The position numbers were made by a program, and so were the translations under genes. A model generated the notes under the pieces. That model did no database searches, had not been told where the DNA came from, and was given only the letters and a program-made list of their open reading frames with translations. From Escherichia coli (GTDB lineage Bacteria > Pseudomonadota > Gammaproteobacteria > Enterobacterales > Enterobacteriaceae): a stretch of 64,000 nucleotides of DNA. This document shows positions 9,484 to 35,725 of the stretch, piece after piece. The DNA lies in assembly GCF_003334255.1 (NCBI RefSeq), contig NZ_QOWU01000009.1, one strand, 5' to 3'. The stretch's first letter is position 1. Every line of letters starts with the position of its first letter.

Positions 9484-10821
9484 TTAATCTTTGCTTATTG
9501 GTGCATCTAAGGGATACGGGTTTTTATGTAGCCGGTTGTAATTCAGCGCATACATGGCGGTGATGACCATCAGGGTGACAAATGACCACATAACCTCTTT
9601 CGCTCCGGACCCCACCACGGCCCAGATGCAGTAGAGGAAGGCAATGGTAGTAACTGCCAGATATGCCGGGCGTGCTTTACCAAAGTGACCGTGTCCGAGC
9701 AGCAGTAACGCCGCACAGGTGTAAAGATATGGCACCAGTGTAAAGATGACCGAGACGGAAGAAACCAGACCGAACTCTTTGGTCGCGTTTGGTGAAATGC
9801 TGCTGAGCTGGAAGATGGTCATCAAAATACCGACGATAATCAGCCCCGCCACTGGCGTACCCGCTTTATTTACACGGGCAAAAATCGGTGGGAACAGTCC
9901 GTCATCGGCAGCGGCTTTCGCCGTTTGACCCGCCAGCAACGTCCAGCCGCCCAGTGAACCTAAGCAACCCGCAGCTGCGCAGAAGGAAACAATGGCCCCG
10001 GCGGTGTCACCCAACGCCATCCGTGCGGCATCACCGAATGGCGAAGCAGAAACGCGCAGTGCGGCATTAGGGATCATCCCCATAATCGCGGTGGTAGAAA
10101 GTACATAGCAAACGGCGGCAATCAATACCCCACCAATGGTGGCGATAGGGACATTGCGTTTCGGGTTTTTCACCACACCTGCGGCAACGGAGGCACTTTC
10201 CACACCGATGAACGACCACAGCGTAACGTTAAGGGTACTTTGAATTGCACCGAAGGTGCCCAGGCCGCTGACGTTCCATGCCGCCATATAGGTTTCACCA
10301 CGGAACCAGAACCAGCCAAATACGGCAATCCCGACGATGGGGATCAGCGCCAGCACGGTGGCAACTGCCTGCACACGGGTGATCATTTTCGGACCGACAA
10401 TGTTCAGCAGGACGAAGATCCACAGCACCACGACGCAGGTGATGGTTAATACCAATGGATCTTTCAGAATCGGGAAGAAGTAACTTAAATATCCTACGCC
10501 AATGACCACCATGGCGATATTGCCGATCCAGCAGGCCAGCCAGTAGAGGACGTTGGTTTGATAACCGAGAAACGGGCCAAAGCAGCGGCGGGCGTAAGCG
10601 TAAGAACCACCAGGACTTGGGTCGAGGAACGACATTTTGGCGTATACCATCGAGAGCCCCAGTGCACCGATAATCGTCACCAACCATCCATAAATGGCAA
10701 TCCCGCCAGTAGAGGCCAGGTTTGCAGGTAACAGAAAAACACCTGACCCCATAATATTCCCCGACACCATCAGGGTGACGGGGATTAAGCCCACTTTGTG
10801 AGCATCAGCATCCGAAGACAT
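9484..10821 (-). CDS. adiC: Arginine:agmatine antiporter AdiC (445 aa)
   Basis: 445-aa APC-family transporter ([29 protein letters not shown]...). Confidence 0.95.
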
Positions 10822-10957
10822 AATTAAACTCCTGCGAAGGCGAGCTTCGTGACAATAAATTACGTCATATCATACGCCTGCATTCGATAGTTGAATTATT
10901 ATCGACCGGGTTATCGCTGATGCCGTTATTAATATAGCTCTTCGTTAAGGTTAAAAA

Positions 10958-11719
10958 TCAGGCGACAGTGCGTTCTCTGTGCTGACTAACATAATGCAGC
11001 GGCGTCATACCGTAGAAGTCTTTAAAGACAGAAATAAAGTACGACGTACTGTTGTAGCCGCAGGACTGTGATACCTGAGAGATATTTTTACCGTCCATCA
11101 TTAATTCATTTACGGCATAACGCATGCGGCAGGTGGTGATTATTTGGCTATAACTGGTGTTTTCGCTTTTCAACTTTTTCTTTAACAGACTTGGGCTAAG
11201 ACATAAACAACTGGCTACCATACTAAGATTCCAGTCTTTGTGAATATCGCTTTCAATAATTTGATAAACGCTGTCACTTACACAATTACGTAACATATAC
11301 ATCATTAATGAAACGAATTTTTTACTGTCGAGAAAACGGGATAGCACCGTGAATAATAATGCGCGTGTTCGTTCCTTTTCTGACTCAGTTTCTGCGGGCA
11401 TCATGCTGTGTTGCGCGGCAACGCGAAAGACGTCTGGCGTCAGGCATGGCAGGGTGAGTATGGGCGTAGCGCTACGTTGCCATACTGGTATTTGCGAGAG
11501 ATCTTTATTCAGAAACCGGAGGTAATCTTTGATGATGTCGTGACTAATATGAGCAACCAAAGTGTTGTTAAGAGAGGAGACGTCGATAATATTATTTTCA
11601 CAATTTAATAACGCCATATGGTTAGCTTTAAGGCTAATAGGTTCTTTCCCATTCACCCTTATCCAGACATCTTTTTCAGTCAATAAAACAATACAAGGTT
11701 GGTCGCTGCAAATCCTCAT
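10958..11719 (-). CDS. adiY: AraC-family regulator AdiY (253 aa)
   Basis: 253-aa ORF with C-terminal AraC-type HTH; located between adiA and adiC. Confidence 0.92.
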   Translation of the reverse strand: MRICSDQPCIVLLTEKDVWIRVNGKEPISLKANHMALLNCENNIIDVSSLNNTLVAHISHDIIKDYLRFLNKDLSQIPVWQRSATPILTLPCLTPDVFRVAAQHSMMPAETESEKERTRALLFTVLSRFLDSKKFVSLMMYMLRNCVSDSVYQIIESDIHKDWNLSMVASCLCLSPSLLKKKLKSENTSYSQIITTCRMRYAVNELMMDGKNISQVSQSCGYNSTSYFISVFKDFYGMTPLHYVSQHRERTVA

Positions 11720-11898
11720 ACATGTACTCCTGAGTGCGAATAAAAGACCAGTTCTCGCTAAAGCAAAGCGATACCGGGAAATGGTTATATAATTGTATGA
11801 TGAATATAAACATGCATAAAAATAACGAGTTTTACTAATAGTACAAATTTTTATAGTAATTTCTCATGTACATATTTTTTTACAGGATAAATAACAGG

Positions 11899-11926
11899 CA
11901 AAAAAAAGCGCGGGGTGGGCCCGCGC
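11899..11926 (-). terminator. Intrinsic terminator downstream of adiA
   Basis: GC-rich hairpin gcgcggg-gtggg-cccgcgc (11908-11926) followed on the minus strand by an 8-nt U run (plus-strand A run 11900-11907). Confidence 0.7.
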
Positions 11927-12043
11927 AAAAAGTATGACATTTTTGTTTGCAGCAATTTTTATGAAAACGTTGCCATACTCAAAAGGCCTAAGGCCAGGCG
12001 GCGTAATGTTATTTAAACAATTACGCCTTCAGCGGAATAGTGG

Positions 12044-33822: not shown

Positions 33823-34027
33823 GCTCTTCTCCTAATTTCATTTTTGAATTTGGAGTCCGGGTCATGATGTATAACTATTTCCTGACCAGACCAAACTGGC
33901 GATAAGATTACTCACGAAAAAAGGATTAATCCTAAAGATTAGGTGAAATAACACAAAAGTTTCTGTAAGTGAGAACTTGAGGTTTTTTATTAACACATCA
34001 GGATCGCAAGTTGATATCATGAAAAGA

Positions 34028-34044
34028 TAAACATTTAATGTTTA
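34028..34044. promoter_or_regulatory. AT-rich perfect palindrome in the cadBA promoter region (candidate CadC or H-NS site)
   Basis: taaacatt-t-aatgttta, about 205 bp upstream of the cadB ATG; assignment to CadC is not verified. Confidence 0.3.
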
Positions 34045-34081
34045 CAATGGATTGCGTGACATTCTCTGGTTAAATTTATGT

Positions 34082-34112
34082 AATAAAAATTATGCGGCAA
34101 ATAAATTGCCGC
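34082..34112 (-). terminator. Intrinsic terminator of cadC
   Basis: Hairpin gcggcaa-ataaa-ttgccgc (34094-34112) followed on the minus strand by ataatttttatt. Confidence 0.65.
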
Positions 34113-34186
34113 AACATATTATACCAACAGGAACATACAAAAACTCAACAACAAATATTTCCGAGCATAAATCAACCCGGAGTTAC

Positions 34187-35725
34187 TTATTCTGAAGCAA
34201 GAAATTTGTCGAGATAAGGTACAACATAAGGAACAGAAGTCTGGAATATACCATTTTCAATCCAGTAAAGGGTGTTTGCCCCTGGGCGTAAATTAAAGGC
34301 GGTGAGATATGCATCAGCTGCTTCCCGGTTCATCCCCTTCATTTCATAAACCTTGCCAAGCAACACATAATTTAGCCAGGACATTTCAAGATCAATGCCA
34401 GTATTTATCGCCTGGTAAGACTCATCTGTTTTACCTTTTACCAGAGCACTGACCGCTTTTATTTGATATATAATGGACAGGTTGTTCAATTCCGGCAGTG
34501 TAACAATGTTATCTATTTCTGTGTTCAGTGCTGCTAATTGTTTTTCATCTAAAGGATGTTGAGAATGGCGCACGATATCAACTAATGCTTTTTCTGCTCT
34601 CGCGTAGGTAAATTCTGGGGATGATTGAACAATCTCACCTAATAATTCACTGGCACGGTTCAATGATTTATCATCGCCATGCAGTAAATAATCATGTGCC
34701 TGATAAAAATTAGTTAATAACGCACCACGATGCGGCAAAATTTTCTGGAGCGTCTCCTGCATTCGTTGTGGCCACGGTTGGTTTAACGCTTTTGATAAAC
34801 TCTCCAGTAAATCATTTTGAATCGCCAGCTGATTACCGTTAGTGATGACATAACGTTTATCCAGCATGGTTGAACCATCTGCATTGTCTACCAATTTTAT
34901 CGACATAAAGCATTGTTGAGCACGGTATTGGCGCTGATTAACAAACGCAATAGATAATGTTTTACCGGAACTGCTCGGTTCATCAATGTTGTAGTTGATT
35001 TTGTCATGCACCATAAAGGTGGAGAAGGTGTTAAGTGATGTCGCCACCAAATCACCCACGCCTATCGCGTAAGAGAGCTGATACGGGGAACTCCAGCTGT
35101 TACAACTTTTATTTACCATATTAATGTCAATATCGCGTGGATTGAGCAAAATACGCGATTTGCTCATAGGAAGACGTGTATCAAGACTTGAAAACGCTAC
35201 CAGTGCTACACAGATACCTAACGACAACAGGAAAAAAAACCATACCCAAAAGGTAGTGAATCGTTTGCTTTTAACTGGGGATTGTTCAGGTGGCGTTGCG
35301 GTGTTTTGAATGTTAAGACTGTGGGAGGGAGAATCTGTGGCAGGAACCGCCTCTGGTATAGGGGGAGGCGAAGATAGCATTATTTCCTCTCCCTCTTCTT
35401 CGCTGTACCAGATAACCGGCACCATTAATTTATAGCCGCGCTTTGGTACAGTAGCGATATAGACAGGACTATCTTCATCATTATCTTTTAATGACTTACG
35501 TAGTTCTGAGATACTCTGCGTCACAACGTGATTGGTGACAATACTTCTCTTCCAGACATTATCGATAAGTTCATCCCTGCTAAGTACTTCGCCACTGTGT
35601 TGAGCAAAGAAAACCAGAAGATCGATTAATCTCGGCTCAAGGGTAAGTTGACGCCCATTGCGGCTAATTTGGTTTATGGACGGAGTAACAAGCCATTCGC
35701 CAACGCGAACTACAGGTTGTTGCAT
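34187..35725 (-). CDS. cadC: Membrane-integrated pH-sensing activator CadC (512 aa)
   Basis: N-terminal winged-helix OmpR-like DNA-binding domain, single TM (FWVWFFFLLSLGICVALVAF), periplasmic sensor domain. Confidence 0.95.
   Translation of the reverse strand: MQQPVVRVGEWLVTPSINQISRNGRQLTLEPRLIDLLVFFAQHSGEVLSRDELIDNVWKRSIVTNHVVTQSISELRKSLKDNDEDSPVYIATVPKRGYKLMVPVIWYSEEEGEEIMLSSPPPIPEAVPATDSPSHSLNIQNTATPPEQSPVKSKRFTTFWVWFFFLLSLGICVALVAFSSLDTRLPMSKSRILLNPRDIDINMVNKSCNSWSSPYQLSYAIGVGDLVATSLNTFSTFMVHDKINYNIDEPSSSGKTLSIAFVNQRQYRAQQCFMSIKLVDNADGSTMLDKRYVITNGNQLAIQNDLLESLSKALNQPWPQRMQETLQKILPHRGALLTNFYQAHDYLLHGDDKSLNRASELLGEIVQSSPEFTYARAEKALVDIVRHSQHPLDEKQLAALNTEIDNIVTLPELNNLSIIYQIKAVSALVKGKTDESYQAINTGIDLEMSWLNYVLLGKVYEMKGMNREAADAYLTAFNLRPGANTLYWIENGIFQTSVPYVVPYLDKFLASE

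Follow-up and report, generated by a model that had tools for sequence, protein, structure and literature searches.

Ancient paralogy and probable secondary proximity of the arginine (adi) and lysine (cad) acid-resistance modules of Escherichia coli

We analyzed a window of 64,000 nucleotides from Escherichia coli (contig NZ_QOWU01000009.1) that carries two acid-resistance modules on the same strand, the arginine-dependent adiA-adiY-adiC genes and the lysine-dependent cadC-cadB-cadA genes. The stretch under study runs exactly from the adiC stop at 9484 to the cadC start at 35725. On sequence comparison, the enzyme and antiporter pairs of the two modules are genuine ancient paralogues, a relationship that has already been published. 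Very probably, adi and cad are two independent, well-studied systems whose duplication long predates the Enterobacterales, and they came to lie close together in E. coli only secondarily, through an accidental relocation of genes at the genus level. An earlier note on this DNA had proposed an ancient duplication followed by rearrangement. The ancient paralogous pairs stand, with the same topology for both partners, but the 16-kb proximity cannot be taken as a relic of that event because the synteny is found in Escherichia only.

Paralogy and age of the adi and cad modules

The shared protein families were upheld by pairwise comparison. AdiA and CadA are 36% identical over 740 amino acids (E = 2e-163), and AdiC and CadB are 38% identical over 447 amino acids (E = 3e-100). 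AdiA and CadA match family models of the wing-domain, aspartate aminotransferase (AAT)-fold Orn/Lys/Arg decarboxylases over their full length, and the Pfam domains PF03709, PF01276, and PF03711 are given for the AdiA cluster and its orthologues. AdiC and CadB match full-length equivalog models of APA family antiporters. AdiA, AdiC, CadA, CadB, CadC, and LysU each score above the curated cut-off of the named NCBIfam family. The sole NCBIfam match of AdiY is GadX, below threshold, and its AraC family label comes from Pfam and RefSeq. A comparison of AdiY with CadC detected no homology (best E = 0.11). The claim that each module has a dedicated regulator holds in that adiY and cadC are clustered with their modules, but the two regulators are mutually unrelated.

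E. coli has three further decarboxylases of the AdiA/CadA family, LdcC, SpeC, and SpeF. CadA and LdcC are 69% identical and SpeC and SpeF 67%, while comparisons between the Adi, Cad/Ldc, and Spe enzymes all fall at 31 to 36% (for SpeF, 31.6% against AdiA and 33.5% against CadA). Among the antiporters, PotE shares 32 to 33% identity with AdiC or CadB. In the enzyme and antiporter families alike, Adi and Cad are slightly nearer to each other than to Spe/PotE. A small neighbor-joining (NJ) tree of the antiporters, rooted with YjeM/YjeH, grouped AdiC with CadB at 70% bootstrap support and left PotE outside. Deep decarboxylase relationships were taken from a published rooted phylogeny, in which the lysine (Ldc) and arginine (Adc) decarboxylases are monophyletic with respect to the ornithine decarboxylases (Odc; posterior probability 1, bootstrap value 100), ldcC derives from a duplication of ldcI, and the branching order within Ldc/Adc/LdcA is left open (PMC6257575). 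That the Adi-Cad affinity is seen for enzyme and antiporter alike fits the duplication of an enzyme-antiporter pair. E. coli CadA is 74 to 76% identical to CadA of Vibrio and Aeromonas, and the figure for AdiA, between E. coli and Aeromonas, is 78%. Since the paralogues share 36 to 38% and the orthologues about 74 to 78%, the duplication must be far older than these genera.

The low-pH induction of these genes and the proton-consuming exchange are described in the literature (PMC6257575, PMC2270276, PMC5078493). Each system would take up a basic amino acid while releasing the corresponding amine, and decarboxylation dependent on pyridoxal phosphate (PLP) would consume a cytoplasmic proton, with arginine converted to agmatine through AdiA/AdiC and lysine to cadaverine through CadA/CadB. 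After the very old duplication of the enzyme and antiporter, each copy would have gained an unrelated regulator, the AraC-type AdiY in one case and the ToxR-type CadC in the other.

Genomic sites of the cad genes

A scan for CadA in 100,044 species-representative genomes yielded 79 loci, which were retrieved with flanks of 10 kb on either side, and all window proteins were mapped onto them. The flanks found in E. coli (ghoST, yjdIJ, dcuSR, and dcuB on one side; dicD, dsbD, cutA, and dcuA on the other) occurred only at two Escherichia loci (L007 and L035) among the 79. Neither adiA nor adiC was present within 10 kb of cadA at any of the 79 loci. At the E. albertii locus, the genes from cadC to lysU are present and the outer flanks do not match E. 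coli genes. An inversion and an inserted locus of enterocyte effacement (LEE) near pheU have been published for E. albertii (PMC3408504) and may explain this mismatch.

Elsewhere, cad occupies several other sites. The accA...tilS context accounts for 19 loci, found in Serratia, Hafnia, Edwardsiella, Shimwellia, Citrobacter freundii M-21, Enterobacillus, Plesiomonas, and Aeromonas; the accA-anchored loci include L029-L034, L047, L050-L056, L059, L072, L076, and L083. This interval is the ldcC locus of E. coli, and the order in Serratia is accA-ldcC-yaeR-cadC-cadB-cadA-dtpC-tilS. In the literature, ldcI and ldcC are given as having distinct, separate genomic contexts (PMC4832331), that of ldcC being distinct and conserved (PMC6257575). 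On gene order, the nesting of cad inside the Serratia ldcC locus implies that the LdcI/LdcC duplication was local there, and the same nesting in Serratia, Hafnia, Edwardsiella, and Aeromonas points to the site of that duplication. The ancestral deep site of cad appears to be accA-(ldcC-yaeR)-[cad]-tilS. The Edwardsiella loci L058 and L060 hold extra lysine decarboxylase-like copies. One of these lies directly after speF-potE and is 83 to 84% identical to CadA, and another is a cadB-cadA pair without cadC, of the kind also seen in Hafnia.

The hmp...glnB-glrR-glrK-purL context is the cad site in most core Enterobacteriaceae sampled, with 13 loci in Salmonella, Kluyvera, Pluralibacter, Phytobacter, Superficieibacter, and strain RIT691. 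Klebsiella and Raoultella have cad in another context, and Trabulsiella, Buttiauxella, Pseudescherichia, Yokenella, and Izhakiella in further ones. The same five-gene block with lysU was found in four unrelated contexts. An NJ phylogeny of the block (concatenated CadB, CadA, and DtpC; 1,582 columns; 300 bootstraps) joined Salmonella with the hmp-glnB blocks of Kluyvera, Phytobacter, and Superficieibacter at 99% and placed the accA-tilS taxa basally. The Salmonella block was sister to that of Escherichia in 0 of the 300 bootstraps, the one robust result on where the Escherichia block belongs.

Genomic sites of the adi genes

Salmonella (loci L086 and L089) carries proP-basSR-eptA-adiC-adiY-adiA-melR-melAB-fumB-dcuB-dcuRS, the same arrangement as in E. 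coli. Past dcuS, Salmonella has genes for a DmsABC-type reductase, without yjdIJ-ghoST-lysU-dtpC-cadABC. The adi genes of Salmonella share the E. coli position, and its cad genes lie between hmp and glnB. Of the six other adi loci examined, the E. coli site was found in Salmonella only, and the remaining five lie in five further contexts: adiA of Kluyvera, Kosakonia, RIT691, Aeromonas, and Providencia each has a different one. In Aeromonas, the antiporter gene comes first and there is no AraC-type regulator gene; in Providencia, adiA has no adjacent antiporter gene. These scattered contexts agree with the published description of the Adc group as patchy, heavily influenced by horizontal gene transfer, and lacking a conserved genomic context (PMC6257575). 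Strain RIT691 has the two modules at places that are unrelated to each other, hmp-glnB for cad (L025) and argR/mdh...aaeAB for adi (L090).

The adi modules of Kluyvera, Kosakonia, and RIT691 (L087, L088, and L090) include one or two hdeA-like acid-chaperone genes, and a small gene of 176 amino acids follows adiA in Kluyvera and Kosakonia (with a weak GerE match in Kluyvera). Together with the best match of AdiY to GadX, the hdeA-like genes hint that adi may be akin to the gad/hde acid fitness island and not to cad.

The synteny comparison across Enterobacteriaceae that the earlier note had proposed confines the adi-cad closeness to Escherichia among the loci examined. Because the adi and cad contexts differ in other genera, RIT691 included, the proximity is Escherichia specific and secondary. 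The adi module occupies the site that it also has in Salmonella, between eptA and melR. The cad genes would move together as cadC-cadB-cadA-dtpC, a compact block to which some lineages have added lysU.

Origin of the proximity in Escherichia

The cad block adjoins the tRNA gene pheU on its 3' (island) side, and the interval from cadC to pheU contains yjdQ, an integrase pseudogene of 163 bp. pheU is a hotspot of island insertion at which LEE islands integrate (PMC3408504). The GC content at third codon positions (GC3) of the genes from yjdJ to cadC is 0.36 to 0.57, compared with mostly about 0.57 to 0.66 in the flanking backbone genes, where adiY (0.457) and melB (0.494) are exceptions. cadC, at 0.39, is the lowest of the cad block. 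The regulator genes, ghoST, and yjdJ are AT rich, and adiA, adiC, cadA, and dtpC are unremarkable. The composition check thus gave a divided answer, low GC3 in yjdJ-ghoST-lysU-cadBC but nothing unusual in adiA, adiC, cadA, or dtpC, and we set the GC/GC3 profile aside as a sign of foreign origin, being weak evidence either way. We have good confidence that, in the Escherichia lineage, a compact cad block was relocated to the neighborhood of pheU. We infer the direction and mechanism of this move, and an island-type insertion at pheU is weakly suggested as the mechanism. A parallel between speC-pheV and cadC-pheU as the trace of a larger duplication was also considered and dropped, as speC is 5' of pheV and cad is 3' of pheU. 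speC lies about 1.2 kb from pheV (MG1655 3,104,000-3,112,000, L004) and cadC about 0.6 kb from pheU, which is probably a coincidence.

Random placement of three decarboxylase/antiporter modules on a 4.64-Mb chromosome brings some pair this close with P of about 0.02 to 0.03, and the same calculation with all five decarboxylase genes of the family gives about 0.07 to 0.11. The closeness is mildly unusual, which is suggestive but weak. Within the species, the arrangement is almost universal: the stretch from adiC to lysU is retained to at least 80% in one piece in 4,830 of 5,426 complete E. coli genomes, and the lysU-cadC block is contiguous in 5,188 of the 5,426 (about 96%). In 165 records (about 3% of the genomes, provided that they are chromosomes), lysU-dtpC-cadABC finds a best match of just 60 to 90% identity. 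Read as paralogue-only matches with the block missing, these records would agree with the known disappearance of cad from enteroinvasive lineages and from strains that carry LEE (PMC3408504, PMC4156367).

Three other accounts of the proximity were weighed against relocation. The one in line with the earlier note, a local tandem or segmental duplication at this site whose products were later separated by insertions and rearrangements, is hardly credible to us. It would account for true paralogues in which enzyme and antiporter alike show the Adi-Cad affinity, for the common strand, and for a proximity with a chance of P ~0.02 to 0.1. However, the closeness exists in Escherichia only, and other genera carry cad at accA-tilS, hmp-glnB, or further sites; the matching adi context of Salmonella lacks cad; and the duplication predates the Enterobacterales/Aeromonadales split, yet no linkage is seen outside Escherichia. 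The mel-fumB-dcuB-dcuRS genes are common to Salmonella and so were not inserted into a former tandem pair. The marks of a local-duplication relic were also missing in the paralogue ranking, the gene order, and the genomic spacing. CadA is nearest to LdcC (69%), with AdiA at only 36%; the modules are not collinear, with A-Y-C and C-B-A orders and nonhomologous regulators; and the contexts of the two modules are separate in Salmonella, RIT691, Kluyvera, and Aeromonas. Selection for proximity, with adi, fumB-dcuB-dcuSR, cad, lysU, dcuA-aspA, and frd gathered for shared H-NS silencing or dosage, is somewhat less remote but still improbable. The window is enriched in anaerobic and acid-induced genes, both regulator genes and the promoter regions are AT rich, and the arrangement is kept in about 89 to 96% of E. 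coli genomes, but common descent alone predicts such conservation within one species. The regulators are separate and unrelated, shared regulation through proximity lacks evidence, and other genera with both systems hold them apart.

A coincidence produced by ordinary chromosomal rearrangement, in which pheU and the integrase remnant would be bystanders of a move that involved no island, is a more serious alternative, although we doubt it. It is in keeping with the absence of an att-like repeat of pheU from the window, with the near-average composition of cadA and dtpC, and with the use of pheU by other islands, such as LEE, which could have left the integrase fragment (PMC3408504). Against it, the position of the block is precisely the island side (3' end) of pheU, the GC3 of yjdJ-ghoST-lysU-cadBC is below that of most flanking genes, and the occurrence of the five-gene block with lysU in four unrelated contexts suggests mobility as a unit. 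The preferred reading, relocation of a mobile cad block into the pheU region, itself has several points to answer. The compositional deviation of cadA and dtpC is weak (GC3 of 0.54 to 0.57, near average), and a search for a direct repeat of the pheU 3' end (23 nucleotides, up to 3 mismatches) matched only pheU itself within the window. The integrase remnant may come from a different, since-deleted island. In the block tree, Escherichia falls among the blocks of Klebsiella, Raoultella, Buttiauxella, and Trabulsiella with 27 to 29% support, so no donor can be named. Each genome was viewed through 10 kb on either side of cadA or adiA, and adi-cad distances elsewhere are deduced from these contexts. 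Chance alone yields the observed proximity just about 2 to 10% of the time, making a selective cause in Escherichia conceivable, and the co-transcription of dtpC with cadBA discussed below is a deduction only.

Association of dtpC and lysU with cad

The earlier note had suggested that lysU and dtpC might feed lysine to Cad, and the two genes fared differently. For dtpC (yjdL), the idea gained support. The gene lies directly after cadA on the same strand at 44 of the 47 cadCBA loci with sufficient downstream sequence, across nearly all of the chromosomal contexts (A to I), a conserved linkage that would extend the cad cluster to cadC-cadB-cadA-dtpC. The cadBA loci of Vibrio and Aeromonas lack it. 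An atypical peptide transporter, DtpC favors dipeptides with a C-terminal Lys or Arg (PMC9309889, PMC3478282). The residues D392 and Y21, proposed as the source of its dipeptide preference, are invariant in 25 cad-linked orthologues, and yjdL was induced on an acid shift together with cadA in array experiments (PMC2270276).

In the E. coli spacer, the ribosome-binding site (RBS) and ATG of dtpC follow about 20 nucleotides past a hairpin and U-run. The same layout of hairpin, U-run, and RBS occurs in most of the 44 cadA-dtpC spacers of other genera, with differing stem sequences. The hairpin and U-run leave no room for a promoter before dtpC, which suggests read-through from the cad promoter. 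The hairpin looks like a leaky terminator or an mRNA-stabilizing element that would couple dtpC to cadBA. Expressed through a conserved leaky terminator, DtpC could supply lysine from X-Lys dipeptides. The evidence is evenly balanced on the fuller proposal that cadC-cadB-cadA-dtpC (with or without lysU) has hopped among at least eight Enterobacterales sites from the ldcC locus and that DtpC is a dedicated lysine-feeding component of Cad. If this is true, CadA would receive through DtpC the lysine of X-Lys dipeptides at times when little of the free amino acid is available. The openly searchable literature holds no explicit functional link between DtpC/YjdL and Cad (subscription-only papers were outside the search).

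The lysU gene does not supply lysine, because a lysyl-tRNA synthetase consumes it, and its linkage to cad is limited to some genera. Among the 79 loci, lysU follows dtpC only in Escherichia, Klebsiella/Raoultella, Buttiauxella, Pseudescherichia, and Enterobacter sp. JUb54. In E. coli, it has an upstream spacer of its own of 236 bp, and LysU is 88.7% identical to LysS. The cad-linked lysyl-tRNA synthetases of Klebsiella, Raoultella, Buttiauxella, and Pseudescherichia are equally identical to E. coli LysU and LysS within 1 to 3%, which suits lysU orthologues and independent lysS copies alike. LysU is acid induced and less inhibited by cadaverine than LysS (PMC5078493), and it would keep tRNA-Lys charged at high cadaverine concentrations. 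This suggests a role in protecting translation during Cad activity.

Gene content of the window

The window aligns end to end with positions 4,326,211 to 4,390,210 of NC_000913.3 (E. coli K-12 MG1655) at 99.991% identity, with five substitutions (at 7656, 11920, 14350, 33310, and 40082) and one extra base at 19424. The extra base is in the yjdF-fumB spacer; the window comes from a close K-12 relative and is not the reference sequence itself. Annotation and NCBIfam matches confirmed the genes that the earlier note had named, including mel, fumB-dcuB, dcuSR, ghoST, lysU, and dtpC between the modules (Table 1). Its other descriptions of the layout were borne out as well. The gap between the adiA start and the cadA stop measures 15,949 bp, in line with the 16 kb given, and the internal gene orders are opposite, adiA>adiY>adiC and cadC>cadB>cadA in the direction of transcription. 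The genes of each module are clustered, adiA-adiY-adiC within 9484-14311 and cadC-cadB-cadA within 30261-35725.

Table 1. Features in and next to the adi-cad interval, in window positions
Feature	Position	Strand	Description
adiC	9484-10821	-	Arginine:agmatine antiporter, APC superfamily, APA family; NCBIfam NF007929, 892 bits (cut-off, 574)
adiY	10958-11719	-	AraC/XylS-type activator of adiA; RefSeq annotation of identical DNA
adiA	12044-14311	-	Acid-inducible (biodegradative) arginine decarboxylase; RefSeq; NCBIfam NF011603, 1704.7 bits (cut-off, 1167)
melR	14510-15418	-	
melA	15701-17056	+	
melB	17159-18580	+	
yjdF	18719-19348	-	
fumB	19471-21117	-	
dcuB	21195-22535	-	
dcuR	23106-23825	-	
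dcuS	23822-25453	-	
melR, melAB, (yjdF), fumB, dcuB, dcuRS	14510-25453	mixed	Intervening backbone common to Salmonella
yjdI, yjdJ	between dcuS and ghoS	+	
ghoS	26375-26671	+	
ghoT	26699-26872	+	
lysU	26991-28508	-	Second (inducible) lysyl-tRNA synthetase; NCBIfam NF009101
dtpC (yjdL)	28745-30202	-	Proton-coupled dipeptide permease; matches yjdL-type proton-dependent oligopeptide transporter (POT) subfamily (NCBIfam)
Terminator-like hairpin	30224-30249	-	11-bp GC-rich stem followed by U-run, within the 58-nucleotide cadA-dtpC spacer (30203-30260)
cadA (ldcI)	30261-32408	-	Inducible lysine decarboxylase; NCBIfam NF011929, 1628.5 bits (cut-off, 1056)
cadB	32488-33822	-	Lysine:cadaverine antiporter; NCBIfam NF007754, 920 bits (cut-off, 585)
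cadC	34187-35725	-	Membrane-bound ToxR-like activator of cadBA; NCBIfam NF007540, 752.6 bits (cut-off, 400)
yjdQ	35982-36144	-	Integrase remnant between cadC and pheU; pseudogene/frameshifted partial integrase in two RefSeq records
pheU, tRNA-Phe(GAA)	36342-36417	-	ARAGORN and Rfam; 3' end faces cad block

The window holds a second paralogous transporter pair, dcuB (21195-22535) and dcuA (39263-40564), about 17 kb apart. fumB, aspA, and frdABCD are also present, forming an anaerobic C4-dicarboxylate theme; proximity of paralogues is thus not unique to adi and cad. Three genes for elongation factor P (EF-P) and its modification, epmB and efp (about 48420-50055) and epmA (about 56430-57410), lie some 13 to 22 kb from cadC, and EF-P is reported to be required for the translation of cadC (PMC5078493). 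Like EpmA, LysU is of the lysyl-tRNA synthetase type, and it matches EpmA models in NCBIfam. Rfam matches include a Guanidine-II riboswitch near gdx (50602-50648, plus strand), the small RNA STnc630 overlapping the proP-basS spacer (5837-6002), and two copies of naRNA4, which is derived from repetitive extragenic palindromic (REP) elements, at positions 1-171.

Significance and comparison with known systems

For about three decades, E. coli textbooks have covered the adi and cad loci together with their paralogy and map positions, and a phylogeny of the decarboxylases is in print. The additions made here are minor but testable: the placement of cad within the ldcC locus in several families, a number of relocation sites, and a conserved cadA-terminator-dtpC unit. 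The most original outcome of the analysis is the supported link between dtpC and Cad, as the near-universal cadA-hairpin-dtpC arrangement offers an atypical transporter a plausible and testable physiological role. The case also carries a caution that neighboring paralogous modules in one genome need not reflect their origin, the closeness here being genus specific.

The modules correspond to the K-12 Adi (AR3; adiA, adiY, and adiC) and Cad (AR4; cadC, cadB, and cadA) systems at about 93 min, with identical genes, order, products, and regulators, and no feature of gene content differs from that reference locus. speF-potE, for the inducible ornithine decarboxylase and putrescine:ornithine antiporter, is a third such module in E. 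coli, drawn from the same two families and decarboxylase first as in adi. It differs in being unlinked (0.72 Mb), in being controlled by the speFL leader peptide without a dedicated DNA-binding activator, and in its position as outgroup to Adi and Cad. The constitutive lysine decarboxylase gene ldcC (accA-ldcC-yaeR-tilS) encodes the closest paralogue of CadA, and the Serratia cad genes inside the ldcC locus are a real case of paralogues made adjacent by local duplication. In E. coli, ldcC differs in lying at 0.21 Mb, compared with 4.36 Mb for cadA, and in lacking an antiporter or regulator gene.

Gram-positive biogenic amine clusters, such as the tyrS-tdcA-tyrP tyramine cluster of Enterococcus, combine a decarboxylase and antiporter with a second, acid-induced synthetase, analogous to cadBA...lysU (PMC3315439). 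They differ in using another decarboxylase family and T-box regulation, whereas E. coli lysU has its own promoter region and is cad linked in some genera. Islands at the tRNA-Phe genes pheU and pheV, such as LEE, provide the remaining comparison, as the cad block likewise lies directly 3' of pheU with an integrase remnant, and one LEE-bearing strain lacks about 10 kb spanning lysU-yjdL-cadABC at the pheU site (PMC3408504). Unlike LEE-type islands, the cad region has no att repeat, intact integrase, or mobility genes and is present in about 96% of E. coli.

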